Source: Blasia pusilla
Taxonomy: Eukaryota
Assembly: GCA_050084515.1 (NCBI GenBank)
Contig: CM114271.1
Coordinates: 39,866,001 to 39,930,000, forward strand
Reading direction: 5' to 3'
DNA length: 64,000 nucleotides
Shown here: one piece after another, positions 1 through 47,415 of the stretch
How the letters are laid out: every line of letters starts with the position of its first letter
How positions within the stretch are numbered: the stretch's first letter is position 1
The notes under the pieces: model-generated
The model's database searches: none
Seen by the model: only the letters and a program-made list of their open reading frames with translations
What the model was told of the DNA's origin: nothing
Position numbers and translations under genes: made by a program

Positions 1-41
1 CGTTTGCAAGCACTAAAATTTGAAAATGAGTAGAAACCGTT

Positions 42-554
42 TGTAACGTCTTTTAGGATATATCGGTGAGATCTAGTAGAGCGCCTTCGTGAGTAGTGGA
101 GGACAAAATCAGTAGATTGAGGATGACGTGCTGAGGCCCCGGGAAACCTGAGAGAGCAGGTTTCCCCTTCGTTTCGGCTCATTTGGAGCCATATTGAGGA
201 ACTTACTATTTTAGGTAAGTACCATTTTGAGTATATGATCGACTTTCTATTTTTGGTAAGTGGCCCTTGACCTCCTACATCAGGTCAAGAGCCAAGGAGG
301 TGACTTGGGAGAATAGGTTATCATGGAGAGAGCTTGGGAGAGGGGAGGGTATACCTCAACGAGAGAGAGCTTGAGAGCTCATTCTCTTTTTGTTGAACCT
401 CTTCGCATGAGGTGGCGGAGCTATGGTCCCTTGCCTTGTGAGTGTAATCCAAGCCTCTCATTAGGAGAGTGGGTTTGTTTTGACATGAGAGAGAATACAC
501 ACATTTGAGAGCTATGGTGTGAGATGGTGTAGAGAGAGATTGGATCTTACTTTA
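42..554 (+). repeat. Terminal repeat A1 (about 513 bp)
   Basis: Near-identical to 12130-12645; the same ORF translation (STRESLRAHSLFVEPLRMRWRSYG...) appears in both. Confidence 0.93.
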
Positions 555-1095
555 CAAAGAGAGAATGAGAGAGTGAGAGAGCTTCATGGGGGATCTCGCT
601 GGTCATTTGCTAAATTGTTCTAACCCTAAAAACCAGCCGCCACGCCGGCAGCGGCCGTCGCCGTCATAGTCATCGTCAACGGTCTGCCATCGACGGTCAA
701 CCATCACCGTCACCATCAGCGGTCAAACGTCACCGTCAACGGTCCACCGTCCGTTGTCCACCCTTTGGTTGCCATTTCCGCCATTACGAAGTGGAGGGTC
801 TTCCACGACGTTCGTTGATTCTCTGACTTGCGTCGCCACCACGTACTTTGTTTTGGTCGCCACTGTCATCGTAGTTTCCTCATCAACCAGTGATGGCGGA
901 TGACCTCCGGTTATGGTGTTTGAGTTCTTAATTCATGTTGCTATGTTGTGATTGGTAGCCGCTCGACGACGATCGAATACCGTGCCTTGACGCCCTGTAG
1001 CCGCAACGCATCGCCGATTGCCGCACCGTCTCGATCGCGGAGCCGCACCGTCATTATTGAGCAGAGTGTGGGTTTATTGTTGATTGAGGAGGGTA

Positions 1096-1212
1096 TGCCG
1101 CCGAGTGCCGCATCCCACCATCGAGGTCCGTGCCGTTCGTAGCCGTTTCGTGCCGCCGAGTGCCGCATCCCACCATCGAGGATCGTGCCGTTCGTAACCG
1201 TTCCGTGCCGCC
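1096..1212 (+). repeat. 55-bp GC-rich tandem duplication in the retroelement leader
   Basis: tgccgccgagtgccgcatcccaccatcgagg... starts at 1096 and again at 1151. Confidence 0.9.
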
Positions 1213-1706
1213 TGCAATGTCGCACCGTTCCGCTGGAACCGCACTATCCATCAAGGAGTTTTAAGCATCATTAGTACGGGAGGAATATGACTTGATGATT
1301 GGAGGAGTTGTCTCCACGACCGAGTTGGGGTCGAGATTTGCAGTTGCTGAGGAGCGACATCGACATGTGTTCAGGTTACCCGGCCATTCTGGTCCTTTAC
1401 CCTGCACGTGTGAGGGATTCTGGGATTTGGGTAGTTTATTTGGGGATATTGGGTGTGTGGATGCTAAGAGCATCATTTATGCATATGGTTTAGGGGACAT
1501 AGACTTGTGTGGGATGTCCGGAGTTGAGGGTAGGTTGTCGATGAGATAATAGCCTGGTCGATTTGCCGCACCACGCCGCTTGTTGCCGCACGTTAGACGT
1601 CTTGGGGAGGGAGGGTGTAGATCGAGTGCCGCATGTTTGGGATGAGTGATTGAGGGATTACTCGCGAGGTTGAGAGTGATTGTGTGAGAGGGGCACGAGG
1701 GTCATC

Positions 1707-3380
1707 ACGGAGTCTGTTCGGGACTTTGAGAGGCGAGGTGGTGAACTCGAGAGTAGCTCTAGAGGTTTTACGTGGAGTGACGCGAGGTTCCGAGGGTCTC
1801 CATGTGAGGGACCACCTTGACCTCCTTCTGTGTCATCGTCAGACAAGGGGGAGGGTGTAGAGGAGTTTGTGAGCACATCGCCACACATTGTGAGTGGTCC
1901 TACCAGTTGGGCGTATGAGATGGACGACCGGGGTAGAGGACCGCGTAGGTTTTCAGATGCAGTAGGCACGATTGAGTTGCACGATTTCATAGCAGAGTTT
2001 AGGAGTTGGTACGACTCCTAGCGGGCCAGGAACTCTAGAGAGTTCAACCCGTTTACATCATGGAACGGTATGTTCTAACATTTAGAGGGGGCGCCCATGG
2101 ACGATTACCATGAGTTCTCTCAGAGATATGCACATGAGATCGAGGCGTGGAGGCTCTACTATGACCTACATTATGTGTCATGGACGGAGCCATTCCCAGA
2201 TGAGGAGGAAGACTCAAGAGAGGCTACTTCCTCTTCCACTAGTGATGTTTTAGGAGGGGTCACTCGCACGGGAGCAGTTGCACCATCTAGTCGGGTTCGT
2301 CCCAGGTTCAACCCTGTGGTTGAGTTCTTGGCTGAGTTGAGGGTGAGCTACCAGGGGGTACAGACGGAGAAGTTGCGGAGCATCCACGACTTCTAGAGCC
2401 GCCCGGGTGAGAGTTTGCGTGAGGCTTACACTCGCTTGCGCCGGTTGATCAACGTCACTTAGGGGTTGACAGAGGCTCAGGCTATCCAGTCATGGTACGC
2501 GATGCTGGACCGGACCCTGCGAACACGGGTGTGGGAGGGGGTGCTTCGTATGAACACCTCCCCTACGTTGAGAGATTTTTTTAGGACCGCCAAGAACATT
2601 GAGCGCAACATGGCGGAGGAGAGCGTAGCCACCATGGGTTTTGGGCGAGAGCAGTCACGATTGTGTGCACCACCTGTGCAGCAACGTGGACCCCGAGATA
2701 GGTCGACTGTGGCACCACGAGCTCAGGGAGGATACCGGGAGGCCATGCCACATAGACCTGCGACTTCATATGCGGCTCAGCAGCAGCCGCCTACTATTAC
2801 TTGTTGGTCATATGGTGGAGCCCATCATCAACGCGATTGCACTCGTCAGGGTTGTGGACGTGTGCCTCAGCGTGGAGGAGGAGATGTCGCTGCACCAGGA
2901 GGTTATTAGTGTGACTATTGTGAGAGGTATGGTCATACATGCGCCAAGTGTTTCAGTTTACATCCTGAGTTACGTCCGGACCGAGGGCCAGAGAGAGCAC
3001 CAGAGCGAGTAGTCGGTCCGAATGGGGCTAGAGATCTGCACCAGGTGGTCTCGTTGGGGGACGAGGAGCAAGAGTTTCCCGACAGGGTGGTGGAGCTGCC
3101 CGTGGAGGAGGTAGAGTACCACCACCTAGACGCGCCGAGGGAGACGCCGGATGTGAGGCTGGGATGGCTGCTCAAATACAGCAACTACATGAGCAGATTT
3201 CCGCTATGGCATTGAGGTTACCCGATGCCGCATCCGTGGCATCAACATCATATGGAGCAACCAGAGATATGGAGGATCCTGGTTGGGTGTGCGGGGTTTC
3301 CCAGATGGAGGTCGCCGCAGTTGTGACACATGGAGCAGCCGCTGAGTTGGATCCACAGCGAGGGGAAGCCAGAAAATAGA
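1707..3380 (+). pseudogene. Gag (capsid-like region plus two CCHC-type zinc knuckles), disrupted
   Basis: F*SRPGESLREAY retrotransposon-Gag-like motif (~2391-2430); knuckles CWSYGGAHHQRDC and CDYCERYGHTCAKC. The start ATG of copy 2 (40053) is ACG here. Several in-frame stops. Confidence 0.8.
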
Positions 3381-3849
3381 CTAGGATTCCTCAGTCTTTC
3401 ACGTTGTCCGAAGCGATGAGGACCCCATCAATGGGTCCTCATCAAAGTTCCTGGAGAGTTGGTGATGTTGTTGGTGCGCAAGCACGGAGGGCGATAGGAG
3501 AAGCGAGTGTGAAGACTCCTACTGTTGATGCTCAGGAGGGGCATGTGTCGAGCACGTTGTTGGGGGCGGCCACCATTGTGTACCGCGCTCCTTTATTTTC
3601 TGCTTCCGATGTTATGATGTTGAGGGGTACGCCCTCCGAGGCTTTTTGGCTGGCCGCTACACTATATGAGCGTGGAGTTGTAGTTCTTGCATCACGTTCA
3701 AAGGTGATTGCAAAGGAGGTAATGGACCTGCCCTTGGAGCGGATGCTCGGGCCGTCCACGTCAGATTCATGGCAGGGTGCAACTGCTAGGATGGCGGAGA
3801 TGCCCACTAGACCCACGATAGAGCATGCCATGGCTTCTCCTGGTGTTGT

Positions 3850-4300: not shown

Positions 4301-4383
4301 AGAGATGGCAACCTTAGCAGCATTTAGCAGTGCCATCACTTGGCCTAGTGGTTTGATTGAGGGACATGTCCATGCAGAGGATG

Positions 4384-7336
4384 CAAAGAATATTGTACAT
4401 CTTGCAATACGTTAAGCTTTGTACTATACACATCTGCCGCCATACTGTGGGTAAGTTGTTCTTTCTCTAGGAAAGGTTTGAAAAGGCCTTCTACATTAAA
4501 GGATGGCAGGATTACAAGACCAAGTGTAGGACTTGGTAACTCAATCCAGGGCATGCACTGTGCAAACAACTCATTCACTCTCAAGTTCACCAATAAAACA
4601 TTATGTACTTATCTATACATGAAGTCAGAATCAAATAGCAAAAGTGGTTGTATATTCCACGCAACAAGTGGACAATCAAGCAGTGAGCCGATCTGGAAAA
4701 ATTATGTATGAAACCCTTTGTACTTTGTCTCAATCCCTAGGCGAGAATCGACAAGAGACAATAGTTATAGATACAACGGCTATACCAAAAGTATCTCCCG
4801 TTTGTAGAAAGGAGTCATGTAGATGTTATGTCATGTTAGAGGTGTGCTCAAATTTCTAAACGTAATGGGCATAAGCACAATAAAAAATCATGAAGAAGCT
4901 AGACGATTATCATATGTAATGTACTTCATGAAAACATGTACAACCATTGGGAAGCATGTAAGTACACCACTTAAGTGTCCTACCCAGAGTACAACGATAA
5001 ATGTAAGTTTTTAAAGCATGGAACAGACCAGTGAAGTATTTCACAGATACCAGAAGCTATAAGGGATGAATAAATCCTTGCTATACATGATTCAAAAATT
5101 GCATATGGCAAACATTACAACTACACATCTACCTTTGCTTAGTATTAGATATCAGCTACACAAGGAAATGAATCTTAGAGAGCAAAACATGATCACTATA
5201 TTCAGACAAGTACCTGAATCTGTATGCGTACTTCAAAGAATGTTGTGTCCAACTACAGGTAAGCAACATACATTAGTGAACGTCCGAACCTATGATACAC
5301 ACCACTTTTATATATCCACTACACCCAAGAATACCGGTTTTTACTATTACACCAGTCAAATAAACTGACCTATACAACATGTTTGCCACAAGCGCTAGCC
5401 ACAAATCATACCACGTAAAATAAACTTAAGAATTATATGGGGATCTATTTTGAAAGTATTTTCGCCGCAATAAATGCCTCTACAGAGCTTGTGGTAGCAA
5501 TTTAGTATTGTGGGGCATCTCAATTTTGTGCATGTAAGGCCAATATACACAAGTCCAAAAAGTGTTTATTGATACATTTGTCAAAGGCATGAAAAGATAA
5601 GAAACTACACCATTGAATGAAGTCCATAACCTTGCAGCTTCATAAAATCCCTAAGCATGTTGATCCAAGATTGTAGTTTGTTAAAATGTTGAGGAATATC
5701 GTGACGATATAGTCACATTAAGAATTGTAAAAATTACCACTCAAACGACACTGGACTTAACCAAAACCACATGTGGTCTTTCTATAGCTCAAATCACTAG
5801 AGCACACAAATTGAAAACTTGTATTCAATTCTGAAACCTCAATACCACAGCCAACATGCATACTCCTTACATACTTATTCGTACTATGTATTGTTTTTTA
5901 GTGTGCTATCTTATCTCAAATCTCCACATACTGAAAAAATAAATAATCTAACCTATAAAACACCTTTGTGCTACCCAATCATAAAAACTATTAAACCACC
6001 ACCACTGAACTTCTTAATAATCAAACAAGACATCGAACTACAGCCATAGGCCCTTGTAGTCCCTTTGTATCTAGAATTACGGCTCAATCCACACTGAAAG
6101 TCTCTTTTTTGTCCTAAAACCTCATAACCCTAAGCAGCATCAATACTCTCGAGAATCCCATTTGAATCCCGTCTTGCTTGTTACTTTACTATTTGAATTT
6201 GATAGCTATAGGGTCACATGAGATCGGAAGTGTTGTTGTTGCAAGAAATGCTCCTATACAACTCATTGTGGGGATTCGGTATGGTGAGCTACGCCAACCT
6301 GGAGAATGAAGCAACCTAAATGCAAGCCAACATCTCTGGTTTAATACACACTTGTATCCACATAAAAAAACTATAGGAACCGCCATTGCTGAGCTACGCA
6401 TGGATGTTTGACATAATCATGCTAGCGAAGTTCAATTAGCTTGAGGAAAACTGTGGATAAGGTCTTAGGTGAAAATAAAGCAATAGAAGATAAGGAATAG
6501 TGCAAAGCTCATAAGGTACATAACCAAGAGTGATGGTGGATGGAGACAACCTAATTCTACAGTAAGTTAAATCAAACGCATAACACAAAAGGTAACTAAG
6601 ATGGAAGGTGCCTCAATTGCCACTGAGCTTGCGTTGTTCCTCGAATGCTATAAGTAATCAAAGGAGACAAAGAGGGATTGGGCTACAGCAAGCACAATTG
6701 CGGTAGTTCCAAAGCGAGAGGCATTGTTGGGGTTTAGGGTGCGGATGTCATTAGGTGTAGCAATGATAGTTGGGCATCACTTAAGTGCGTCGTAAAGCTA
6801 GGATCGGGTGCATGACGCAAAACAACTCTAAGCATGGAAGTTACCTGGTTTGCTATAGCTGTTGAAGTCGGCCGCGTACCCTAGAACTGAAAATGATGTC
6901 TATGGATCAACGCTTTGTGCACAAAAAAGCACAACCAAAGTGAAGCTCACTCTATCTAGACAATAGCGTATAGTACGTGCACATGCGTTTAACAATGTCA
7001 CAAAATTATGTTGTTGCAACGTGAGCAAACACAATGGACAATCGGCCCTTACCTTAGCACAAATTTTCTGCCCTAGTAGGAGTTTCGGTCGGGAGCTATA
7101 CTTTAATAGAGGTAGAAAAGAAAACAAGGCTAAGCCGGATCGTGCAAAGTCACTAAACCTCGAATACGCCAAGTGTGATAAGGGGTACAATGCTCTCGAG
7201 ATTTGGACACCCTCACGGGATAGTGGTTCAATTGCGGCACACACACCCGGCCGATCTTCCGACTAGTTTCGACGCAAAATGTTGCCGCCGCTTGTTGTGG
7301 GGCTCACCGAGAGCCGACAATTGGGAGATTGCATCA
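4384..7336. other. About 2.95-kb AT-rich insertion of unknown origin inside copy 1 pol
   Basis: Alignment with copy 2 breaks after ...catgcagaggat (~4383) and resumes at gcgtggagc (7337). About 125 bp of copy 2 (42445-42570) has no counterpart here. Confidence 0.8.
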
Positions 7337-7447
7337 GCGTGGAGCGAGGCGTTTGCACCGGAGCGTGAGGGGTCTGAGGAACCCAAGGTAGCAGGGAGTG
7401 CTACGATGACACCCTTGGATACCACACCCATTGTGTGGTGTACCCGG

Positions 7448-8420
7448 GAGGAGGGTATTCGAGTGTTAGATCTCTTTGGAGGGATTAGCATCGAGTTAGC
7501 TGTTGTTTTGCAGGCATGAGTGCGAGTACATCGGTATATGTATGTGGAGAGTGATGATGTTGCGAGGTGCGTCTCACTACGGCATGTGGCGCAATTACGC
7601 CTACGTTTTCCCAACTTATTATCTGCATCCGCAGTACAAGGGTACCAGAGTTCCCTACCGAGGGATATTTCGTTGTTGGGGGCGCAGGACTTAGAGCGGG
7701 TAGGGACCATTGATTTGGTCATTTTTGGTTGGCCATGTCAGGGCCAATCGAGTGCTGGATGAGGCAGCGGGTTGGCTCACACTCGGTCCAGGTTGTTTTG
7801 GGAGATGTTGAGGGTCTTACGGCAGTTACAAGAGCACCAATCTTGTTCTCCAGCCTACATTCTCGAGAATGTGCCGATCTTAGGAGACTCCAGGTCACGG
7901 GTGGTGAGGAGTGTTCATCAGGTGCGTGCCTAGAGCGGCCCAGCAGTATTCTTGGATGCGTTGAGTGTAGGTTCTAGAGCCCATCGCCGCGTCTATGGTG
8001 GACCAACTTGGTGTCCCATGCGGTGTTACAGAGGGCATATGCGAGAGTGGAGCGCCCCTCCCATTTGTTAGTGGATTCCATTCTAGATCTAGCTCATCGA
8101 TCAGAGGCAGTGAGGCACGATGATCGACTACCGTTGATTGTGGTCAACAGGGTAGGCAGGCCCCGAGCAGCCTTTCCCACGTTTGTGAGTTTTCCCGCTT
8201 CCTATGCATACAAGGAGGACGGTACTGGCTTGGTTTGGGATGACCAGGTTCAGAGGTTGATGGAGCCCAACGCCAACGAGAGAGAGCGGGCGATGGGATT
8301 TCCCCCAGGAGTGATGGCAGTCCCGTCAATATCAGAGGCATCACGATGCCATGTCTTGGGTCAAGCGATGGACCTGAACTGCTTGACATGGATCTTCAGC
8401 TTGGGAGTGGCTGAGCAACG
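7448..8420 (+). pseudogene. DNMT3-like C5 cytosine DNA methyltransferase domain within Pol (copy 1)
   Basis: Motif I IRVLDLFGG (~7454-7483); motif II YVESD; motif IV IDLVIFGWPCQG (Cys codon 7736-7738); motif VI YILENV (Glu 7865); motif VIII AHRxRLWWTNL; motif IX ERERAMGFP; motif X RCHVLGQAMD. Canonical, unpermuted order. Three in-frame stops and one frameshift. Confidence 0.92.
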
Positions 8421-8744: not shown

Positions 8745-10170
8745 GATGGAGATTTGGGAGCCAAATATGGGCCCTAAGTTCACAAGAGGAGAGCGGCGCT
8801 GAATACATCAATTCCTCAAGAGTTATAGGAGCATCTTTGCGTTTAGCATGGAGGATTTGGGTACGCTGAAGGGACCGGGATCTGCATTGAGTTGTTGAGT
8901 GATACACCGATCTTTCGACGACCCTACAGGTACACTCATATGGAGAGGGCTATGATTCAGAGTAGGAGCCAGGACTTGGTCGGAGCAAGACTAGTGAAGA
9001 TATCGCATGGGGAGTATGCATCTACCACTGTCATGCCCACCAAGAAGGATGTGCATGGCAACTTGACGGATAGGCGGATGTGTGGGGATTACCAACCTAT
9101 CAATCGGAAGACGAAGTCTGATAGGTATGCCATGCCTAATCGCTTCTTTGATACGATTGGTCATGCAAAGGTCTTCAGTTCATTGGATTTGAGAGCCAGA
9201 TACCATCAACTGCTTATCAGATTGGAGGACAGGCAAAAGACGGCATTTTGGGGCATCGATCCTCACGGGAAGGATTGTTTATACCAGTAGCGGTTCTTAC
9301 CATTTGGGTTAAAGAACGCCCCGGCTGAGTTTCAGAGGGTCATGGATAGGATCTTGGTTGGTCTAGATTTTGCTAGGTGTTATATTGATGACATCGCAGT
9401 CTTTAGCGCCACGGTTGAGGAGCATGAGCAACAACTAGAGGAGGTGTTCCGACGATTGCAATTACATGGGCTGAAGCTACATCCAGGCAAGTGCAAGTTC
9501 TTCTAGGACCATATTGAGTATTTGGGTCATACGATATACCCAAGGGGCCTTGGTGTTCAGGAGACAAAGGTAGAGGCTATCTCACGCATTCCACGCCCTA
9601 CATATATGAGCCATGTTTGCGCATTCATGGGATTGGCGAACTTCTATCATCGATATGTCAAGGGATTCAGTTCGATTGCGAAGCCGCTGACCTTGCTGAC
9701 CAAGGTGGATCACGAGTGGCACTAAGGGGATGAGCAAGAGCGAGCATTTCAGTTGCTCAAGGACACGTTGACTTCCGCGCCCATCTTGAGGAGACCGATC
9801 AAGGGGCGTCCTTTCCAGTTGCACACAGATTGGAGCATGTTGGGGCTTGGAGTGGTGCTCACCCAACATGATGATGAGGGTAGAGAGTTTGTGGTGGCTT
9901 ATGCCGGCCGCTGGAACAACGCTGCAGAGGCAAAGTACAGCTCGTATGAAAGTGAGTGCTTGGCTGCGGTGTGGGCTGTCGCGCATTTCAGGTGTTACTT
10001 ATTCGGCAATCCCTTTACCATCATCACTGATCATCAACCACTGAAGTGGTTGATGGAGTGGGACAAGCTTACAGGGAAGCTTGCGAGATGGGCTCTGTTG
10101 TTGCAGGAGTATGATTTGCAAGTGGTACATAGACCTCGGACGCTCAACCAGGATGCAGATGGGTTGAGTC
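8745..10170 (+). pseudogene. Reverse transcriptase and RNase H (copy 1)
   Basis: PIFRRPYR, RMCGDYQPIN, FSSLDLRARYHQ, PFGLKNAPAEFQR, CYIDD (~9378-9392); RNase H motifs LHTDWS, YSSYESECLA, IITDHQPL, NQDADGLSR. Confidence 0.95.
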
Positions 10171-10559
10171 GTAACCCATGCCCGAGTCAGCGAGATGCGA
10201 TTGGAGCTCGATGGCATGGAGAGAGTGATCACAAGTCGGTGCCAGGAGGGCACGCGTCAGCCTATTTAGGCATGTTGGCTATGGAGAGCCAGAGTGTGGA
10301 GACTTCAATGGCGAGGTCTAGTGGAGAGTCCTTGGATCCCGAGGCCAGTGAGGAGACGATAAGTGGCCGAGATATTCATGATGATGGAGTAGTCTTGGAG
10401 TACCTTCGTATTGGCAGCGTTGCGAGCACCGTGGATGCTAGAGAGCGGGATCAGATCCTACAGCGGGCCAGACGGTTCCGTTGGGAGGGGACACATGTTT
10501 TGAGGGTTTGGAAGGATGGTAGAGTCCGCGTAGTGACGCATCCTTCGCAGAGAGCACGA

Positions 10560-11620
10560 CTAGTGCAGCATGCCTACGAAGAGTTGGGTCACTTTGGGAT
10601 GAAGCGGACGTACAGCTTGCTCCAGATTCAGTATTGGTGGCGAGGCATGCAGACTGACCTTCAGCAGTTTGTTGCCAAGTGCATGGTGTGTGATCAGGTC
10701 CGAGCATTGTTCAATGCTCCGACTCCACAGGTCCATCCATTACCGATCATGGGCTTAGGGTATAGATGGAGTTTGGATTTTGGAGGACCTTTTCCTTTTA
10801 CGGAGCGTTACAGTCGTTATGTGTTGGTGATGGTCGAGCACTTCTCAAAGTTTATCAAGTTGGTTGCATTGTCTGTCAAAGCGAGTGAGGGAGTAGCTTA
10901 TGCCTTCCTTGACAGAGTGTTGAGTCATTATGGCGCACTGGCTAAGGTGTTGACAGACTAGGGTACGGAATTTCGCGGTGAGTTCCAGGCCTTGTGTGAT
11001 CAGGCGCTAATCGACCATCGCACGACTTCGCGAGATCATCTTGAGGTGGATGGATTAGCGGAGAGAGTTGTGCAGATGGTGAAGAGGGGTTTACACAAGT
11101 ATGGCTTGTAGAGAGGTCACCTAGGAGATTGGGACCTCCAGTTGCCCTGGTTGGCGATGGGATACAGATTCAGCAGGCAGGCATCCTTAGCGTCTTTTTC
11201 ACCGTACTTTCTACTTTGTGGCCGACAGCCAGATTTACCTACAGCCATTCGTCGAGATGCTGGTGAGGTGCTGGACCTTGATGACCCAGATGTATGGATG
11301 TGAGCATGTTCTCAGAGGGCTTAGTTGTTTTGGAGAGTGATGCCCATGGCGTTCGAGAACTTGGCGATTGCGCAACATCGGGATACGTTGAGGTATGCGA
11401 CTATTCGGGGGTGGTGGTTATCGACCAAGTATCCGGAGGTTTCATCAGGGAGACTATGTCTACTTGCAGCAGATGGCACCGACGACGTTGGATGTGACTG
11501 CAGAGCGCACTATCATGAGAGTTCGTGACGTTTTGCCATCCGGTGTTCTCTTGTTGGAAGGACGCGATGGTATGGTATGGAAGGACCATGTGCGTAATTG
11601 TGCGTAATGTCACCTTCCTA
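10560..11620 (+). pseudogene. DDE (rve) integrase with H2C2 zinc-binding region and GPY/F-like tail (copy 1)
   Basis: HAYEELGHFG...CMVC; WSLDFGGP; VLVMVEHFSK; VLTD*GTEF; DGLAERVVQMVKRGL; RRFHQGDYVYL. Confidence 0.93.
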
Positions 11621-11672
11621 AAATTTATGGTACATTAGTCCAAGCTTAGCAGTAGTTCCTGCAGGCTTGCGT

Positions 11673-11813
11673 TGTATGTTGTGTGGTTCTGCCCGTGGTG
11701 CGGCCACGATGCTAGTCTGTGATGGATGTTCGAGAGGTTGGCATATGGCATGTCTGACGCCACCTCTCACTAGGATTCCTTGGGGACGATGGATGTGTCC
11801 CACATGTACATAG
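11673..11813 (+). pseudogene. C-terminal PHD finger of the polyprotein (copy 1)
   Basis: CMLCGSARGAATMLVCDGCSRGWHMACLTPPLTRIPWGRWMCPTCT* has a C4-H-C3 pattern with WxCPxC. Confidence 0.93.
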
Positions 11814-11999
11814 ACGAGATACTAGGTGGGTTTCAATTTCAACTTTTTCTTTGACATGGATGACAGGAAGGCGACTAACGATGGGGCCAAATGAGCACCC
11901 GGCCTTCTTGCTCTTAGTGTCCGAGAGATGTATGTCATGGTAGGTAGGGATGGATGGCTATCTGGAGTTAGAGGGACCTAGCCACCAGCTCGGGAGGCG

Positions 12000-12127
12000 A
12001 TTGGAGATATTTTAGTACTTCTTGTCTCATTGTTTGGATGCCATGAGTTATCATGGGATCGTGCGTGTTTGTGTGTATGTTTAGTTACAGCGATGCATGT
12101 TGTGTAGCGATGTGTATACGCACGACA
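12000..12127 (+). repeat. Terminal repeat B1 (128 bp)
   Basis: attggagatattttagtac...cacgaca; matches 12646-12773, 46969-47096 and 47288-47415. Confidence 0.92.
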
Positions 12128-12129
12128 GC

Positions 12130-12645
12130 TGTCACATTTTTTTAGGATAGATCGGTGAGATCTAGTAGAGCGCCTTCGTGAGTAGTGGAGGACACGCTCA
12201 GTAGATCGAGGATGACGTGCTGAGGCCCTCAGGAAACCTGAGAGAGCAGGTTTCCCCTTCGTTTCGGCTCATTTGGAGCCATATTGAGGAACTTACTATT
12301 TTAGGTAAGTACCATTTTGAGTATATGATCGACTTTCTATTTTTGGTAAGTGGCCCTTGACCTCCTACATCAGGTCAAGAGCCAAGGAGGTGACTTGGGA
12401 GAATAGGTTATCATGGAGAGAGCTTCGGAGAGGGGAGGGGTATACCTCAACAAGAGAGAGCTTGAGAGCTCATTCTCTTTTTGTTGAACCTCTTCGCATG
12501 AGGTGGCGGAGCTATGGTCCCTTGCCTTGTGAGTGTAATCCAAGCCTCTCATTAGGAGAGTGGGTTTGTTTTGACATGAGAGAGAATGCACACATTTGAG
12601 AGCTATGGTGTGAGATGGTGTAGAGAGAGATTGGATCTTACTTTA
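12130..12645 (+). repeat. Terminal repeat A2
   Basis: Starts TGTCAC; direct repeat of 42-554. Confidence 0.93.
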
Positions 12646-12773
12646 ATTGGAGATATTTTAGTACTTCTTGTCTCGTTGTTTGGATGCCATGAGTTAGCAT
12701 GGGATCGTGCGTATTTGTGTGTATGTTCAGTGACAGCGATGTATGTTGTGTAGCGATGTGTATGTGCACGACA
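12646..12773 (+). repeat. Terminal repeat B2 (128 bp), right end of the element
   Basis: Direct repeat of 12000-12127; ends in CA next to the TSD. Confidence 0.92.
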
Positions 12774-15196
12774 CATTAGTCCGTGTGGCTGCAGTGGGTT
12801 TCACATAACCCTAAGGACCAACGGTTGGGAGAGATCACCCTGTCTTACAATATCCAACGGTTGGGAGAGACCATGTCAGAAAGAAATAACCCCTACTCGT
12901 ATTTGCCAAAAATGCCACGTGTCGACAGGAGGAATGTTTGCGCATCCGAGAAGCAACTCTCCCATAATTATAAGATTATTAAAAAAAATTAATATAAAAG
13001 ACTTCACATGGCGTTCATCGGGAGCCTTTTACGATATGATGATGTAAGAACCTGTAGTTTAGGACGCAAGGCAAAGGCAAGAGTGTAGCGAAGATATCAT
13101 CATCGGAAAAACATTACGGGATCAAGTCACCTGATCTCCAACCATTGGAGAGTTCCAAGTGGTCTCCTATTTCTCAGGAGGATTGTATGCAATTAAGTAA
13201 GTGGAAGAAATTGCACTTCCAAAGTAGTGTAGCTTGGGGGGAGAGACTTACACATGAGCACGCCCGTGGCTTTGAACACGCGATCAAAGATTCCATGCTC
13301 GCTAGAGGACTTCTTGCATCACCAGATCATGGATATGTTCCTAAACCCGTTGAAGGCTTCAAAGAGGACATTCTTATAGACGTCCTCGGCACACAACCAT
13401 ATCAGCTGAGGAGGCACAAAGATGAGAAAAGAGACACCATCGAGGGCGAATCAACAAAAAAATCGCAGAGAACCCCATATCCCCGCATGCACGAGAGGTG
13501 CTCACCATCTCTGAGTAGACGGCCTCTCGAGAATGATGGCCCGACAACACCCACCCCAAATTCAGAAGCCACGAAGAAGGCAGGTCAAAAAGATGTGGTA
13601 GTAAATATCCATATTGTCCTCTAATCTTGGTTGTAGGGAAGACCTGAAGATGCTAAAGAGTAGAAGCTAACGAGAATTTACATATAATTCAACTTTCAGG
13701 AATGGAAGCTACTTGGGGTTGCAATTTGATGATTTGTGTGTGTCTCTTAACCCTATCCCTGTCTTACAGCACTCAACTTGAGCATTAAAAGACTACCTTC
13801 CCGTGGATTTAGGTACTCAACTCGAGTACTTTAGGGTTCCCAAACGGGTACCACTATTGCAAAGTCAACATATCCCATCAAGGGCATCTCACGAAGTCCC
13901 TTTCCATCCGCAAAATCTCACGAAGTCCCGTGCACCCGTGGATGTGCATATCTAAATACTACACTTTACAAAAAGATGGAAAAGTTCAAAAGCATTGGAT
14001 GTGCAGTGGAGCAAAAGCCACGGGACAAAATGGACAACTTGCACACAATGTGGAGCGACCTACATCAAGGTCAAGCAACCAAAAAAGTCTAGCACGGAGC
14101 AAACCCAGACGCACAAGCAGGCTAAGCCCATCGTAGGCACATGGCTGCAGTAGCGTCCAGAACCCTGGGTGTAGTAGCAGCGCACAATCAACCCATGCAC
14201 GCAAACATGTAAGACAGGGAACAACAAGAGATAGGCGATCAAATATGGTGCTCCCACGGGAGCCGGTGCTACCATAACTATGTACACATGGAGCAAACGC
14301 GGCTACAAGGCCATGGAGCAAATGCGCAAAGTGGCCGTAAGGCCGCGGAAGAACACTAGAAGAATCCAGCAAGGAGCGCGGCCGCACGGGAATAAAATAT
14401 CCAACCCAGTAAGCCCAAGAGACACACATGCGCGCCGTAAGCCACTCCAACACACTCGAACACACATGCGCGCACATGGACACCATCAAAAGTACAAACA
14501 ATCCACACACATGCGCGGGAGAGAACACTCGAGCGTGCGCAACAACACCATAAACAAGGTCCGTGCGAGTTTGGACAAACTGCCGCTAGAGCACCCTCAA
14601 GCCTCCGTAGCAACCAAACACAATGACTTCCGTACGATGTTGGACGTGGGGGCGCTCCACACACATGTGCAATCAAGCGCAAGTGCACCCAAGTCTGAGT
14701 GTTGAGAACCGTTGAGGGCCTAAGATGCAGGAGACGAACTAGGCGGAGAATAGACGAGGAGCACAAAATCGCGAAGGGGAGAATGAGAGACTAGACCCCT
14801 AGCGTCGAAGACTCAAGGGGGGGAACATGAAGGGGGCTAGGGGGAGAATGTCCTGCTCGTGGCCCTCTTCGTCCGGAATAAAAACTGACTCCGTCCGATC
14901 CAAGATCTGACGGCCCTCATGGTCATAACCGTTAGATCCGCCATTTATGGATCTGGCGGCAGCTCAGCCTCTGCCCATCCAATCTAAATCTAACGGTGGG
15001 ATTCACCCAGACCGTTAGATTGGTGTGTTTCATCCTGGCCACACGATCTCAAGAAGAAGTGGCGGCAGGGGATAGGTGTGGGAGGTGTAGTCAGGTTTGG
15101 GTTGCCGAACCTAGCCGAGGCCTATTTTCTTTTTTAAAAGAAAGTCTTTTCCAATTTTTTTCCCTCTACTATTAATTTAGAAAAAATAAATCTTTT

Positions 15197-37000: not shown

Positions 37001-40000
37001 CCGATGAGTAAAATTTCCTTGAGTATGTTTCTTTCTAAAAAATAGGTTCGCTATCTATACTATTATGGGAGAGTGCCTTGTCGCTGCCCAAACACTCGAG
37101 CATCTGACACGTGACATTTTGGCCCAAGAAAAATGCACCATTTCCAAACGGTCTGATATGTGAGTTCTGCGATTCTAACCGTTCGATGGGATTTTTGGTA
37201 GCCGTTGGATGGGGATCCTTAGGGTTTTGGTACTTCGGCCGTGAAAAAGGTTTTTTTTTTTAATCATTCAAATTTTCTGTCCTTGAAGAGAGTTAGATCC
37301 GCTCCTTGAGGGAGATCCGTCGATTTAATGGCCCTCTTGCTATTCAAAGAGGCGTCATGGCTTACAAGACCTTACATAGTAGAAGTATTTATGTTTTACA
37401 AAAAAATTTGAAACCTCCAAACTCACTGTGCGCACTTCAGCCTCTGCTCAAGTAACATTAGGTCTCATTTGAAAGCTCAGGTCACATCGGATCTTTACTC
37501 ATTCAATGAAATGTTACAAGCAATTAAGGCTTAAGCTATAGTTGAGCTTATGAGATTTATTCACGTAGATTTTATTTACACATGCAATAGCTATTGTTGA
37601 GCTTATAAGCTTTATTGATGCATATTTCATTTACACATGCAACAAAATGATACCAGCCAAGCTTAAGTTATTGCTGAGCTTTTGAGCTTTAACTCAGTGT
37701 GTGTCTTTGAGCTCTACTGTGGGCCCTTCGAGATCTTCTCCTAATGTTGCCGTTGATGTGTTCCTGCATTTCAGATACTTGGCAGAGTGATTGGGAGCTC
37801 CTACTTCCGAGTCGGCTCTTTTAGTAGTTCCAACTCCCGATTCGGCTCATTCGGCAGCTCCCATTGCTCTTTCGGTTCCTTTTGCCACCCCCATTGCTGG
37901 TTCATCTCCTTTAGCAACTTCTCCCACACAGGTGCAAAATAGATCGAAGGTACAAAAACAACGAGGATGGCAACAAGAATAACAACAAAGAAGCCACCCA
38001 AGGAAAGGGAAAGAGTGTAACCTAGATGATCTCATCGAAAAAGCTGGAGTAAAGTAAGCTAATTAGGAGCCATTGGAGAGTTCAAAATGGTATCCCGGAT
38101 CTCAAGAGAAGTTGCGCTTTGGTATTAGTCCTCCTTGGGGGGGAAGACTCACTAGGAATCGGATGGGTTCATAAGGGCGTCGGGAAGAACCTTCAGCAAG
38201 GTCTCAGCAGTGACTTCACGGCTGTACAAATGTCAAAAAACCTCAACGTAAACCCGCAACACATCCCAAGCTTCTTGCACATGGCCATGAACGCTACACC
38301 CTTTCATCTCGATAATCAGCGAGGTAGAAGCATGCTATCCGCGGCTTAACGCAAAGCATTGAGATAGCAAAAAATTGGCAACTCGACCAACATCAGTTGC
38401 TTAATTAGAAATGCCGATAAATGAAACACATGACCGATAAGAAACATGATTAAACTCCCCGCATAGGAAGCATTCAATGAATTAGGGCTAAAGTTCTAAT
38501 CGACTGTATAGGAAGCGGAAAGAAAAGGGCAAGGGATAAGCCGGACGCTCTAATCTCCATGAAATACAAACAGGGAGAGGTAATGAGCAGCAAAAAAATA
38601 GGGTGCGAATGGGCGGAACGTTGCACAAGCTTGGCACATGAAGATCTAAATGCAAATATAAAAATCCACCTTACTCTAAGTGCAAAGGAGAGGTCAAAAG
38701 GGACAAGCAATCATTCCACTGGATGAGAGAGTCCGAGAAGAGTCGAGGGAGGAGCAAAGAGGATAATCTAATCATTCCTAGGATGAGATTCCTTGAGCAC
38801 TCAAGTGGAGTAAACTCAGACTCAATGTGGTTGTAGTAGCATTGAGTGGAAAAATCTCCATCGGGTACAACTTGTCACGATTGTTAGGATAGATCGAAAA
38901 GATCTAGTAGAACGCCTTCGAAAATACTGGAGGACAGCCTCAAGAGGTCAAGGATGACGTGTTGAGGCTGCAGGTAACCTCCAAGAGCAGGTTTTCCCTT
39001 CGTTCCCGCTGATTTGGAGCCATATTTAGGAACTTACTATTTCGGGTAAGTGGGGGACCGTGTTCCCCGCTTCATGGCTCATGGGAGTGCTCACCGGAGC
39101 AAGAGACGTGCGAGTTTGTTGTTTTGCTTTGCTGATTTTTTGTACGGGACAGTGGCACGCGGAAGCGTTGGCCAATTTTTGATAGGAATTGAGTATAGGG
39201 ACGGATTGCTCCATTCCGGTGCTCTCGAGAGCATCATGTAGCTTGCTGATTTGTGTTCTTACAGCTTTTACATTTTCGTTGGGAGAAATCAGCTTAGAAG
39301 CGCTGCCAAATTTTGTGTAGGAGAAAGAGACATTGGGTTTTACGACAATACCTGTCAATTTTTACTAGAATAATTGATTCAAAATTTTTTTCAACGCCTT
39401 CGTAGATCGTGAAGCTGTGCACGTTGTGCAAGAGAGAGTGTGCGATTTGGAGTTGCGAGAAAAATGTTATGGTCAATCTTGCAAAACTTCCACTGCTAGG
39501 AAATTTTTAGGGTTAAAATGTTCAAACCCTAAACTAGCCGACGCGGCGGCCGTTGCCGTCATAGTCACCGTCAACAGTCCGCCCTTGATGGTCAACCATC
39601 ACCGTCAATGGTCCATCGTCACCGTCAACGGTCAAAGTACGACTTGATGACTGGAGGAGTTGTCTTCACGACCGAGTTGGGATCGAGATTTGTAATTTCC
39701 GAGGAGCGACATCGACATTATTTTCAAGTTACCTATTTCGGTCTCTTACCCTGCACGTGTGGGGGATTTTTGGGTATTGGGAAGTTATTTGGGATATTGG
39801 GTTCTGTGTTGATGCTGAGAGCATCGACGATGTATGGGTTTAGGGGTCATAAACTTGTGTGGGATGTCCAGAGTTGAGGATGGTTTGTCGATGGGACGAT
39901 TGATCAGTTGATTTGTTGGACCGCGCCGCTTGTTACCATACAACACAAGTCCCAGTGAGAGATTGTAGATTGAGTGCCACATGTTTAGTTTAAGTGATTG

Positions 40001-40052
40001 AGGGATAACTTACGAGATTGAGAGTGATCGTGTGAGAGGGGCACGAACCATC

Positions 40053-42450
40053 ATGGCCTCCTTTCGGGATTTTGAAAGGCGAGGGAGTGGACCTGAGAGT
40101 AGCTCTGGAGGGTTTACCCCCAGTGGTGAGAGGTTTCAAGGGTCTCTACGTGAGAGACCACCTCGATCCCCTTCTGTGTCGTCTTCACACGAGGAGGAGC
40201 GTGTAGATCAGTGTGTTGGTGATCCACCGTACGTATTGAGTGGTCCTACCAGTTGGGCGTACAAGATGGACGACATGGTAGGTTTTCGGATGCTCTAGGC
40301 AAGATAGAGCTTCACGACTTCATTGCAGAGTTTAGGAGTTGATGTGACTCACTATGGGCTAGGAACTTTAGAGAGTTCAACCCGTTTACAACATGGAACG
40401 GTATATTCCAGCATTTAGAGGGGGCGCCCATGGACAATTACCATGAGTTCTCCCATAGATATGCCCAAGAGATTGAGGCATGGCGACTCTACTATAACCC
40501 ACACTATGTGTCATGGACGAAGCCGTTCCCAGATGAGGAGAAGGAGTCAAGACATGCTACTTCCTCTTCCATCAGTGATGTTTTAGGAGGGATAACTCGC
40601 ACTGGAGCAGTTGCACGGTCCAGTCGAGTTCATCCCAAGTTCCACCCCGTGGTTGAGTTCCTCACTAAGTTGAGGGTGAGCTACCAAGGGGTTCATAGGG
40701 AGAAGTTGCCGAGCATCCACGACTTCTAGAGGCGCCCGGCTCTCGAAGAGTTTGCGTGAGGCTTATACTCGCTTGCGCCGGTTGATCAACGTCACTCAGT
40801 GGGTGACAGAGGCTGATGCTATCCAGTCAAGGTAGGCGATGTTGGATCGGACTCAAGGGATACGGGTGCAAGAGGGAGTACTTCTTATGAATACCTCATC
40901 TACGTTGAGAGATTTTTTCAGGACCTCCGAGAACATTGAGCACAACATGGCAGAGGAGAGCGTAGCCACCATGGGTCCTGGGCGAGAGCAGTCACGATTG
41001 CCTTCACCACCAGTGCAGCACCGTGGAGCCCATCATCAGCGGGATTGCACTCGTCATGATCATGGACGTGTGCCTCAGCATGGAGGAGGAGATGGTGCTG
41101 CACCAGGAGATTATCTGTGTGACTATTGTTACAGGTATGGTCACACACGCGCCAGATGTTTCAGTTTACACCCTGAGTTATGTTTGGACGGAGGGCGAGA
41201 GAGGGCACCAGAGCAAGTAGCAAGTCCGGGTGGTCCTGCACCAGCTGGTCCCGTTGGGGAACGGCTGGAGTTTCCTGACAGGGTGGTGGATTTGCCCATG
41301 GAGGAGGTAGAGTCCCACCACGTAGACGCGTCAAGGGAGACATTGAGCGTGATGTTGGGATCGGTGCTCATATACAGCGGCTACAGAAGCAGATCGCCGT
41401 TATGGCATTGAGGTTACTCAATGCCGGATCCGTGGCATTGACATCATATGGAGCAGCCTGAGATATGGAGGATCATGGTTGGATGTGCGGGGTTGCCCAG
41501 ATGGAGGCCTCCGTAGTTGTAACGAGTGGAGCAGCCACAGAGTTGGATTCACAGCGAGGGGAAGCCAAGAAACAGAAGAGGCTTTCTGAGTCTTTCACGT
41601 TGTCCGAGACGATGAGGACCCCATCCATGGGTCTTGTTCAGAGTTTTGGGAGAGTTGGTGATGTTATTAGTGTGCATGCACGGAGGGCAATGGGAGAAAC
41701 AAGTGTGACGACTCCTATTGCTGATGCTCAAGAGGAGCATGTGTCGAGTACGATGTTGGGGGTAGCCATGATGGTGTACCGTGCTTCACTTTTTTATGAT
41801 TCAGATGTTATGACATTAGGAGGTACCCACGCCGAGGTGTTCCGGTTGGCTGCTACGCTATGTGAGCGTGGCGTTGGAATTCCTGCATCACGTTCAGAGA
41901 TGATTGCAGACGAGGTGATGGACCTGCCCTTAGAGTGGATGCTCAGGCCGTCCACATCAGATTCATGGCAGGCAATGGCTGCTTGGATGGCGGAGATGCC
42001 CGCTAGACCCGCGATTGAGCTTGCCATGGCTTCTCCTAGTGTTTTGTTGTTGGATAACCGGGGAGAGGTCTTCCAATTGGTGAGTCCCGGAGGTAGAGCT
42101 TTTAGTCGCAGTGCGTCTTGTTGGATTCAGGAGAGCAACCTCTGATGTTGGGGAAAGTGTCATTCAGAGGAATGGGTTTGACGAGAGCCGATGTGGAGCG
42201 TTGTCCATTCTTGGTTGGTGGAGCAGTGATATATACGATGGGGTTTCCCCTGGCTTACTAGGAGGATTTTGCGTCCTACAAACCAGGATGGAAGTCAGGT
42301 GATGGGCGCCTTAGCTCATTACCTGTTCGATTCACACGTGCTGTGATCAAGTGACGGCCAAGAGAGATGGCGACCTTAGGAGCTTTAAGCAGTGCCATCA
42401 CTTGGCCTAGTGATTTGATTGAGGGAAATGTCCATGCACAGGATACTCCC
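40053..42450 (+). pseudogene. Gag and aspartic protease (copy 2)
   Basis: ATG at 40053; homologous to 1707-4383; knuckle CDYCYRYGHTRARC; VLLDSGEQP. Confidence 0.8.
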
Positions 42451-42679
42451 GTTCCTGACATTTCTATGGAGAGAAGTGGCATAGTAGCCACATCAATCCG
42501 TGGAGGAGAGGTGATGCTTTGGGGCTCGATTGAGGAGGTTCGACGCTTAGCCATTGAGCATGTGCAGACCGCGTGGAGCAAGACATTTGCACTAGAGTGT
42601 GACAGGTCAAAGAAACCCCATGTAGGTAGGAGTACTGCTATGACCCCTTGACACCACCCCGATTGTGGGGTGCATCCTA

Positions 42680-43560
42680 GAGAAGGGTATTCGGGTGTTG
42701 GATCTCTTTAGAGGGATCAACATTGGGTTAGCTGTTGTTTTGCATGCTGGAGTGCAGTAGTACTTGTATGTGGAGATGGATGATGTTGTGAGGCGCACTT
42801 CAATTCACCATGTGGCCTTCTTTTTCCCGCCTTGTTGTCTACGTCCGCCATTCAGGGTTATCAGAGTTCCCTACCGAGGGACATTTTATTGTTGAGTGCT
42901 CGACGAGATAGCGGATTAGCTGACTCTCGATCAAGGTTGTTTAGGGAGATGATGCGGATCTTGCGACACTTGCTGGAGCCTCAGTCTCGTCCTCCAGCAT
43001 ACATTCTGGAGAATGTACCGATTTTGGGTGATTTGAGCTCCCGTGTGGTGACAAGTGTACATCATGTGCGCGCATGGATCGGAAATTTTGTTGGATGCGG
43101 CGAGTGTGGGTTCACGACCACATCGCCCGCATCTTTGGTGCACCAACTTGGTACCACACGAGGTGTTTCGGAGGGCATATGCGAGAGTGGAGCGCCCCTC
43201 CGATTTGTTGGTGGATTCTAGATTGGATCCGGGCCGTCAATCATAGGCAGTGAGGCTAGATGATCAACCGCCATTGACTATGGTCAACAGGATTGGCATG
43301 CCACAGGCAGCCTTTCTCACATTGTTAACCCGTTCCCACTTCCTATGCATTCAAGGAGGCCGGATCTAGCTTGGTTTGGGATGACGAGGTACAGAGGTTG
43401 GTGGAGCCCAATGCCGATGAGCGAGAGCGAGCGATGGGATCCCTCACAGGAGTGACGGAAGTACCATCCCTATCAGAGGCATCACGACGTCATGTCTTGG
43501 GTCAGGCGATGGACCTGAATTGCTTAACATGGATTTTCAACTTAGGAGTAGCTGAGCAGC
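42680..43560 (+). pseudogene. DNMT3-like C5 methyltransferase domain (copy 2), catalytic motif IV deleted
   Basis: IRVLDLFRG, YVEMD, YILENV (43009), RPHRPHLWCTNL, ERERAMGS, RRHVLGQAMD. About 72 bp containing GWPCQ is missing at ~42894. Confidence 0.88.
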
Positions 43561-43865
43561 GTCTTTTGAGGATGCGAAAGATCACAGCAATTGCGTTGGT
43601 GAGCCCCATGCCTACCAAGATGGTTGAGGCACTGGCCGGGGGCAAGATGTAAGGAGATACCAAGACCCGACATACCAAGGGTGATTGGGAGAGATACCCT
43701 TGGACTTCTTGGGATGTTTTGCACGTACGCCAGGAGATGGTAGCTACATCATCAAGCATGGTTCTAGGTACTCCACATGGAGATCCGATTTTGCAGGTGG
43801 TTGTAGGGGAGCAGTCAAATTTTGTTGTCCGAGACAGGGTTGCATCATAGAAACCACCGACACCC

Positions 43866-46857: not shown

Positions 46858-46968
46858 TGTAGGTAGTTCTATATTCTGACTTGTATCTGTGACATCGATG
46901 ACAAGAAGGCGACTAAGGATAGATCGCTATCTGAAGTTAGAGGGACCTAATCACCAGCTAGGCGGGCG

Positions 46969-47415
46969 ATTGGAGATATTTTGGTACTTCTTGTCTCGTT
47001 GTTTGGATTCCATCAATTAGCATGGGATCGTGCCTGTTTCTGTGTGTGTTCGGTAACAACGATGTATGTTGTGTAGAGATGTGTATGCGCACGACAAGCT
47101 CTCAAGCATTCTCTCTTTGTTGAACCTATTGGCATGAGGTAGCGGAGCTATGGTCCTCCTTGCCTTGTGTGTGTAACCCAAGCCTCTCATAAGGAGAGTG
47201 GGTTTGGTTTGACATGAGAGAGAGTGCACACCAAAGAGAGCTTGGTGTGAGACCTTGTTGTTGTGATGGAGAGATTTGATCAATTTTATTGGAAATATTT
47301 TAGTACTTCTTGTCTCGTTGTGTGGATTCCATGGGTTAGCATGGGATCGCGTATGTTTTTCTGTATGTTTGGTGACAACGATGTATGTTGTCTAGCGATG
47401 TATATGCGCACGACA
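46969..47415 (+). repeat. B1 (46969-47096), partial A (47097-47287) and B2 (47288-47415) terminus of copy 2
   Basis: Two 128-bp B repeats flank a segment homologous to the 3' part of A (about 376-554). Confidence 0.9.

Follow-up and report, generated by a model that had tools for sequence, protein, structure and literature searches.

Split direct repeats on an integrase-bearing, Ty3/Gypsy-type retroelement family from Blasia pusilla

The stretch of DNA analyzed here, called the window in the following, comprises 64,000 nucleotides of Blasia pusilla (assembly GCA_050084515.1, contig CM114271.1, positions 39,866,001 to 39,930,000 of the forward strand). It contains two old, broken members (copy 1 and copy 2) of a very abundant, transcribed retroelement family of the Ty3/Gypsy type. 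Two direct repeats, A and B, are arranged around an internal part (I) in the order A-I-B-A-B. This order is the normal, heritable form of the family and not a rearrangement, and a DDE integrase carries out the insertion, which leaves a 4-bp target duplication next to the TGT...ACA ends. Signals for priming further indicate, strongly, that the long terminal repeat (LTR) copied by reverse transcriptase (RT) would be B+A, and that the genomic element would be such a provirus rotated by one B.

Repeat layout and insertion ends

The A...B-A-B layout of the window copies is real. In copy 1, A1 (42/51-554) and A2 (12130/12140-12645) are 97.8% identical over 506 nt, and B1 and B2 are 93.75% identical over 128 nt, as determined by a repeat search and blastn. 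The sequence 3' of A1 is unrelated to B, and no B is found there. Copy 2 (38873-47415) ends in the order B1, partial A, B2, with both B repeats exactly 128 nt long. Its 5' A piece corresponds to A positions 1-179 and its 3' A piece to positions ~331-515. Since these pieces do not overlap at all, copy 2 is without any A repeat. The two copies are about 82% alike, with 75-90% identity in aligned blocks, whereas their flanks cannot be aligned; they are thus independent insertions, of diverged subfamilies. The termini of both read TGT(A/C)AC...CGACA and are directly adjoined by 4-bp target duplications, perfect in copy 2 (AACT/AACT) and matching at three of four positions in copy 1 (CGTT/CATT). 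For the coordinates of all features see Table 1.

To extend the comparison to the family, 80 loci from metagenome contigs (L numbers) were collected by a scan with an alignment of relatives. They were classified by self-comparison and by mapping A and B of each subfamily onto every locus. The order A-I-B-A-B was found in 12 independent metagenome insertions (L005=L009, L008, L023, L028, L036, L038, L049, L074=L077, L061, L029=L032, L045=L046 and L057=L058, where '=' marks one insertion seen twice and L036 is cut by the locus end). Together with the window copies, labeled W1 and W2, this makes 14 insertions from at least five subfamilies. Eleven insertions read A-I-B with nothing 3' of B, either complete (L004, L012, L014, L055=L056) or with the 3' end only (L002, L024, L062, L065, L069, L071, L080). 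None of the 25 classified insertions has the order AB...AB, BA...BA or A-B-A-I-B, and every 5' end seen carries a single A. Outside this classification stand L006, L007 and L037 (rearranged or truncated), L011 (partial B), L033=L034 and loci of the L042/L070/L076 type, in which the match to B is limited to its first 59 bases.

A 4-bp target duplication next to TGT...ACA was looked for in 11 complete elements. It is perfect in eight (AACT in W2, TCTC in L005, AAGG in L023, AATC in L038, CATA in L074, TACA in L004, TGTG in L012 and TGTT in L055), matches at three of four positions in W1 and L014, and is unclear in L057. Such 4-bp duplications are the product of a DDE integrase; tyrosine-recombinase elements are not known to make a target duplication.

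Translated with stops as X, one strand of copy 1 encodes in order a DNA_methylase domain (PF00145), RVT_1, RT_RNaseH, Integrase_H2C2, rve and a C-terminal PHD finger, while a Pfam search of the three frames of the other strand found no domains. Neither Phage_integrase nor any other tyrosine recombinase was found in the six frames, and three intact relatives likewise have no tyrosine-recombinase domain. In intact relatives the order is protease, methylase, RT, RNase H, integrase and PHD, with the protease first in P0044; PF00145 lies upstream of RT in P0044, P0024 and P0033. The domains of copy 1 together with the protease of P0044 give the pol order of Ty3/Gypsy elements (protease, RT, RNase H, integrase). 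Pfam detected no Chromo domain at the integrase C-terminus, where the PHD finger stands instead. The closest named proteins come from Calypogeia fissa (68% identity) and Marchantia polymorpha (58-68% over part, methylase domain included), together with proteins of Closterium species and of Klebsormidium nitens (45%). The K. nitens protein KFL_009030040 combines methylase, RT, RNase H and integrase domains and is 45% identical to the RNase H-integrase open reading frame of the window in a pairwise comparison only. The PHD finger, present in the window element and most relatives, was not detected in KFL_009030040.

The two B repeats of an element change in concert across subfamilies. The B pair of L061 is 92% alike and about 60% identical to the others, and the B pair of W1 is 94% alike as against 86-90% to the B of copy 2. 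For the L023-type subfamily the identity between B1 and B2 equals that between copies and is uninformative on homogenization. We found no fixed difference between A1 and A2 among 131 substitutions in five pairs, which were mixed in direction; 28 sites were hit in at least two pairs, again in mixed direction and mostly by transitions. The comparison of B1 with B2 likewise revealed no fixed differences that would mark separate inheritance, the multiply hit sites being mixed in direction and mostly transitions. The concerted change of B and the lack of fixed differences in A fit repeats that were identical at the time of insertion, beyond which the multiply hit sites speak neither way.

Sequence reads were taken from two DNA runs of different studies and two stranded RNA runs, all under the same species label, with depth determined in 30 bins. 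The summed word depth of the element, which is not a copy number, amounts to thousands in both DNA runs. RNA covers the whole element, and the first mate is almost always of the minus strand, which in most libraries means plus-strand RNA. RNA reads cross both the B|A and the A|B joint, with depths of 27 and 20 at position 12645. The A2|B2 joint is in addition covered by DNA contigs from both runs, and B|A is crossed by reads and contigs.

An earlier note, made from the letters of the window alone, had described the layout, the positions in copy 1, the 128-bp B repeats of copy 2 and the combination of an rve integrase with TG..CA ends and a target duplication, and had expected that a tyrosine recombinase would be absent. 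All of this was confirmed, and the layout proved to be more widespread than the note had supposed. Two corrections concern copy 2, which has no A repeat left and whose 5' A piece runs into 460 nt of unrelated sequence. It had named two circumstances that would speak against its view, namely ordinary AB...AB repeats in most copies and an assembly artefact. The former order is absent from the classified insertions; as to the latter, reads or contigs cross both joints and independent metagenome assemblies agree.

Priming sites and repeat joints

Directly after A1 stand bases that are reverse-complementary to a site within A itself. We regard them as a predicted primer binding site (PBS). The complementarity amounts to 16 of 16 positions in L023 and L022, 15 of 16 in W1, L036 and the L001/L061 pair (PBS from L001, A from L061, as the test of the L061 type) and 14 of 16 in L055; in each case none of 200 shuffles was as good. 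Three subfamilies have different PBS sequences with compensatory changes on both sides, i.e. the two sites covary. The complementary site lies about 25-30 nt downstream of a TATA-like box, in W1 about 25 nt downstream of GGGTATACC. Taken together, this strongly indicates that the element would prime its own minus strand in the manner of Tf1.

A G-rich purine tract stands directly 5' of B1 in 14 of the 15 rows compared, L029 being without it. Its sequence is GGGAGGCG in copy 1, compared with AGGGGGGCGAG in the L023 type. The tract strongly indicates a predicted start of the plus strand adjoining B1. Both signals of an LTR element are thus present, yet they frame B+A rather than the repeats at the genomic ends, as the tract adjoins B1 and not A2. 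Because the PBS adjoins A1 and the tract adjoins B1, RT would by ordinary rules, under which an LTR extends from the base following the tract to the base preceding the PBS, build LTRs composed of B+A. We consider such an LTR strongly indicated by these positions, with U3 predicted to consist of B and the 5' part of A, and R-U5 of the 3' part of A. The expected cDNA would then read B-A-PBS-internal-tract-B-A. Compared with it, the genomic order A-PBS-internal-tract-B-A-B is, on strong indications, that of a provirus rotated by one B.

The two joints of the 3' end differ in character. At A2|B2, 12 of 13 rows (L074 and L077 being one insertion) have the base before the PBS exactly next to the one that follows the tract, which strongly indicates a U5 end joined to a U3 start. 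The exception is L005, where 4 tract bases and 16 others lie in the joint; in addition, one DNA contig has A plus 7 PBS bases joined to B. Remnants of this kind are typical of retroviral circle junctions formed from mis-cut or mis-trimmed cDNA ends. The B1|A2 joint reads ...CATGACA NN TGTCATG..., so that here the insertion ends abut with a 2-base spacer. W1 and six of eight L023-type insertions have GC as the spacer, L005, L038 and L045 have AT, and L061 and L057 have GT. When the start of A was searched against the remaining element for complementary stretches, nothing but the palindrome of the B|A joint was returned.

Possible routes to the rotated ends

Based on these signals and joints we propose the following route. 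Self-primed reverse transcription would yield a cDNA with B+A LTRs, the ends of which would be joined afterwards in the manner of a 2-LTR or gapped circle. The integrase would then open the molecule at the site of abutted ends, ACA-NN-TGT, in the upstream LTR, and insert it. We rate the chances of this account as even. A wider version, in which the insertion termini (A start, B end) are by design out of phase with the RT termini (B start, A end), each transposition passes through a U5-U3 joined molecule, the DDE integrase acts on an internal site and the split repeats belong to the copying strategy and not to tyrosine recombinases, is put forward tentatively, as a possibility that may well turn out wrong.

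Several points weigh against the proposed route. Extrachromosomal cDNA was not seen, neither as a linear form with B start and A end nor as a circle. A 2-LTR circle has two identical B|A sites, and opening at random would give A-B-A-I-B as often as A-I-B-A-B. The observed numbers are 0 and 14, so the model needs an added asymmetry. As a speculative option, in a gapped circle the minus strand might have halted at the upstream site, its 3' end being the already processed left end. Retroviral integrases, moreover, are not known to make efficient use of internal sites. The PBS complementarity is without significance in six of the 14 elements tested (L003, L004, L014, L026, L057 and L042, which are the L057 and L042 types and four degraded copies) and marginal, at 13 of 16, in L038 and L074. 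Aberrant A2|B2 joints number two. Finally, the sole pile-up of read starts, seen in one run, lies at 12401 and precedes the predicted transcript start by about 67 nt; this may be an alignment edge.

We also examined whether A-I-B-A-B could arise from reverse transcription alone. A second plus-strand primer at B|A, priming from the 3' end of the RNA, rolling synthesis with a circular intermediate as template and stalled displacement were considered, and no variant yields the A2|B2 joint with the observed PBS and tract.

A route akin to the templated end repair of DIRS elements would start from an RNA running from inside A1 into or through B2, so that A2|B2 is inherited via the RNA. The missing 5' part of A1 and 3' part of B2 would be copied from B1|A2 by template switches, and a linear A...B cDNA would be made directly and inserted by the integrase. 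The RNA reads over A2|B2 are in line with such an RNA, although transcripts begun in A2 may equally be their source. B is UG-rich with a CA end, which fits a plant poly(A) unit. That 12 of 13 rows agree in their A2|B2 joint would likewise be expected, but the joints with tract or PBS remnants point to the joining of cDNA ends. Both termini are present together only at the internal junction and, according to the accessible text of PMC7192593, where the DIRS model and its test are given, completion of DIRS-1 transposition requires an internal complementary region. A minus strand started from the PBS beside A1, however, cannot copy A2|B2 or B2. No primer site was found 3' of B2, and no template-switch scheme built from the observed PBS and tract ends at the A start and the B end. 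We consider this route unlikely. The earlier note had suggested that the family may rebuild its ends from the internal B-A junction. With respect to information this holds: the predicted transcript would start only downstream of the 5' part of A1, for which A2 is then the sole source. The evidence does not favor the DIRS-style route implied by the note, since the PBS adjoins A1 and the tract adjoins B1.

For the A-I-B copies, later deletion between B1 and B2, as in the formation of solo LTRs, is the most likely origin. A tree of 19 rows was built from the 1.5 kb preceding B1. Copies of the A-I-B and the A-I-B-A-B form are mixed in it, with six changes, no fewer than with shuffled labels. Terminal branches are longer in A-I-B (median 0.086 vs 0.047, one-sided Mann-Whitney p = 0.013) in a test of 18 rows, from which L038 was dropped for its aberrant branch; as a proxy of age, terminal branch length is rough. 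Alternatively, A-I-B might be the primary product, made when the integrase cuts a linear B-A...B-A cDNA at both internal B|A sites, with A-I-B-A-B as a rarer by-product that alone is able to propagate. This form needs no joining of ends, its insertions are 11 against 14 of A-I-B-A-B, and the target duplications of its complete copies are perfect in three of four and match at three of four positions in the fourth. Longer branches and scatter over the tree, on the other hand, are as expected of decay. An A-I-B transcript would be without the 3' R and the promoter part of A and thus cannot found lineages, and the origin of A-I-B-A-B is left unexplained. We judge this alternative to be distinctly improbable.

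Two further explanations concern the layout itself. The window copies might have been rearranged from a canonical element with A+B LTRs, or a solo LTR might have inserted behind an element. Copy 2 is clearly damaged, and in copy 1 the difference between B1 and B2 (6.25%) exceeds that between A1 and A2 (2.2%). Nevertheless, the same order recurs in other assemblies, where 12 independent insertions from at least five subfamilies have it, with no canonical form among 25. The PBS directly adjoins A1, A2-B2 is without a flanking duplication, and PMC5890265 gives the same layout for Klebsormidium. These findings contradict such an origin, which is very improbable. An assembly artefact, or a PAT or Ngaro element with tyrosine recombinase mistaken for Gypsy, is scarcely credible even though high-copy repeats misassemble easily and the layout is the defining one of PAT and Ngaro, in view of concurring independent assemblies, reads or contigs across both joints, the lack of Phage_integrase in six frames, the presence of rve and H2C2, and the 4-bp duplications.

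Further features and relation to known systems

Table 1. Positions of repeats, predicted signals and domains in the two window copies.
Feature	Position	Strand	Basis or remark
Copy 1 left target duplication, CGTT	38-41	+	3 of 4 positions match 12774-12777
Copy 1 A1, start TGTAAC; predicted promoter part and R-U5 part	42-554	+	97.8% to A2
PBS-complementary site in A1, predicted first bases of transcript	378-393	+	15 of 16 complementary
Predicted self-priming PBS adjoining A1 end	554-569	+	Complementarity; covariation with two other subfamilies
Copy-1-specific AT-rich segment	4383-7449	+	Gap vs copy 2; read depth
C5 cytosine DNA methylase remnant, PF00145	7664-7900	+	E = 1.4e-10, stops as X
RVT_1 and RNase H (RT_RNaseH, RT_RNaseH_2)	9138-10112	+	Pfam
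Integrase: H2C2 zinc domain and rve core	10542-11030	+	Pfam
PHD finger, integrase C-terminus	11673-11807	+	E = 2e-9
Purine-rich tract GGGAGGCG, predicted plus-strand primer	11992-11999	+	Directly 5' of B1; AGGGGGGCGAG in relatives
Copy 1 B1, ends CGACA	12000-12127	+	Repeat comparison
2-base spacer GC between B end and A start; palindrome GACAGCTGTC	12128-12129	+	Insertion ends abut
Copy 1 A2	12130-12645	+	Repeat comparison
Copy 1 B2, first base directly after last A base	12646-12773	+	RNA depth 27 and 20 and DNA contigs across 12645
Copy 1 right target duplication, CATT	12774-12777	+	
Copy 2 left target duplication, AACT	38869-38872	+	
Copy 2 5' A piece (A positions 1-179)	38873-39051	+	80% identity
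Copy 2 unrelated filler in place of remaining A and PBS	39052-39513	+	No match
Copy 2 B1, preceded by AGGCGGGCG	46969-47096	+	
Copy 2 partial A2, from ~5 nt before predicted transcript start to A end	47097-47287	+	
Copy 2 B2	47288-47415	+	
Copy 2 right target duplication, AACT	47416-47419	+	

Copy 1 carries a segment of about 3 kb (4383-7449) which is AT-rich and occurs neither in copy 2 nor in those family members that are expressed or abundant. Between 4775 and 6944 the DNA depth is ~0-2, compared with thousands over the rest of the element. At the segment edges, RNA and DNA reads of other copies continue with different sequence, leaving loose ends at 4382 and 7450. The segment takes the place of a region that in relatives codes for the protease and the beginning of the methylase, and none of its frames contains a Pfam domain. 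In the leader of copy 1 (1096-1205) a 55-nt unit is repeated twice in tandem with 93% identity, and some DNA contigs omit 65-66 nt. A telomere-repeat-like AACCCTAAA motif is common to both leaders, at 622-632 and 39524-39534, shortly 3' of the PBS region.

In copy 2, the ~460-nt filler has no match in the window or in the metagenome loci. The partial A2 starts directly after the end of B1, and the deletion takes out exactly the promoter part of A.

Seven RNA reads from the two runs join position 11942 to 348 (or to the A2 equivalent at ~12438) with a 4-base overlap, GGTA. They link a region 58 nt before B1 to A position 307, and in copy 1 the edges are not GT..AG. This joint was found in no DNA contig; it could stem from an expressed deletion copy or from a template switch.

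Two of the metagenome loci show further peculiarities. In L028 (3246-3878), B1 and A2 are directly followed by inverted A positions 1-180 in place of B2; either a nested insertion or palindromic rearrangement at the end of A may account for this. L053, a distant relative (36% identity) from another habitat, has a 3.5-kb direct repeat (286-3803 and 9133-12650, 99.9% identity) around the integrase match.

Outside the two copies, a 272-amino-acid open frame on the minus strand (50633-51448) matches Catalase (PF00199, E = 2.7e-114) and probably represents a single exon of a catalase gene of the host. No Pfam match was obtained for six further long open frames outside both copies.

LTR retrotransposons are commonly taught as having two equal LTRs, the outer edges of which serve both as the ends of reverse transcription and as the ends used by the integrase. 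The family described here appears to split the two, consistently in at least five subfamilies and, going by the literature, as far as Klebsormidium. Annotation tools that rely on paired LTRs will mis-call or miss it, although it is among the most abundant repeats of its host. Whether an LTR-LTR junction can be a productive substrate for integration becomes testable in a transcriptionally active plant system. If the wider version of the proposed route is true, a DDE integrase acts on an internal site of abutted ends, which retroviral integrases are held not to do. The lineage would then also illustrate a possible path from a Gypsy ancestor to PAT, Ngaro and DIRS-like elements, namely a swap of the integration enzyme. 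The combination of methylase and PHD finger in one predicted polyprotein might in addition tie integration to chromatin.

With canonical Ty3/Gypsy elements the family shares the pol order, the integrase, TG..CA ends and the 4-bp duplication. A predicted PBS after the 5' repeat and a tract before the 3' repeats are present as well but frame B+A. It differs in its unequal ends, the 5' end being without B and the 3' end carrying B on both sides of A. In working only, it resembles retroviral 2-LTR circles and circles of the IS3 family of insertion sequences (IS), in which the two element ends meet as a short palindrome around a small spacer; the joining of a U5 end to a U3 start is likewise found in retroviral 2-LTR circles. 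Retroviral 2-LTR circles are dead ends, however, and IS circles are made by transposase from DNA and not from cDNA.

Tf1/Sushi elements and plant Tcn1 resemble the arrangement predicted here in having a PBS complementary to their own R region and not to a tRNA; for the plant Tcn1 clade, self-priming is predicted in the available part of PMC6317226. In contrast to the rotated repeats and the PHD finger found here, these elements have ordinary paired LTRs and a chromodomain.

The order A1, internal part, B1-A2-B2 is identical to that of PAT, TOC1 and Ngaro as given in the accessible text of PMC4157794 and PMC7192593, and the layout connects integrase and tyrosine-recombinase elements. Those elements carry a tyrosine recombinase, whereas the window family has rve, TG..CA ends and a 4-bp duplication. 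The methylase of DIRS and PAT elements is Dam-like and unrelated to C5 methylases, as stated in the part of PMC5890265 available, while the window family has a C5 methylase.

The family is of the same kind as KnitGypsy-Dnmt3 of Klebsormidium, with which it shares a C5 DNA methylase inside a Gypsy-type pol and DIRS-like repeats combined with Gypsy domains. The combination flagged by the earlier note is already in print for a charophyte: one sentence in the Fig. 4c legend of de Mendoza et al. 2018 (PMC5890265) describes the repeats of KnitGypsy-Dnmt3 as arranged like those of a DIRS element and its domains as Gypsy. Our literature search found no paper besides this one that describes such repeats on an integrase element. 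The nearest named relatives of the window element differ in being liverwort proteins, and in the accessible text of PMC5890265 target duplication, PBS, purine tract and mechanism are not given for KnitGypsy-Dnmt3. The family is therefore a further case of a kind once noted in print, and what is new here is mechanistic detail: a predicted self-priming PBS with compensatory changes, a purine tract, and copying ends that would be out of phase with the insertion ends.

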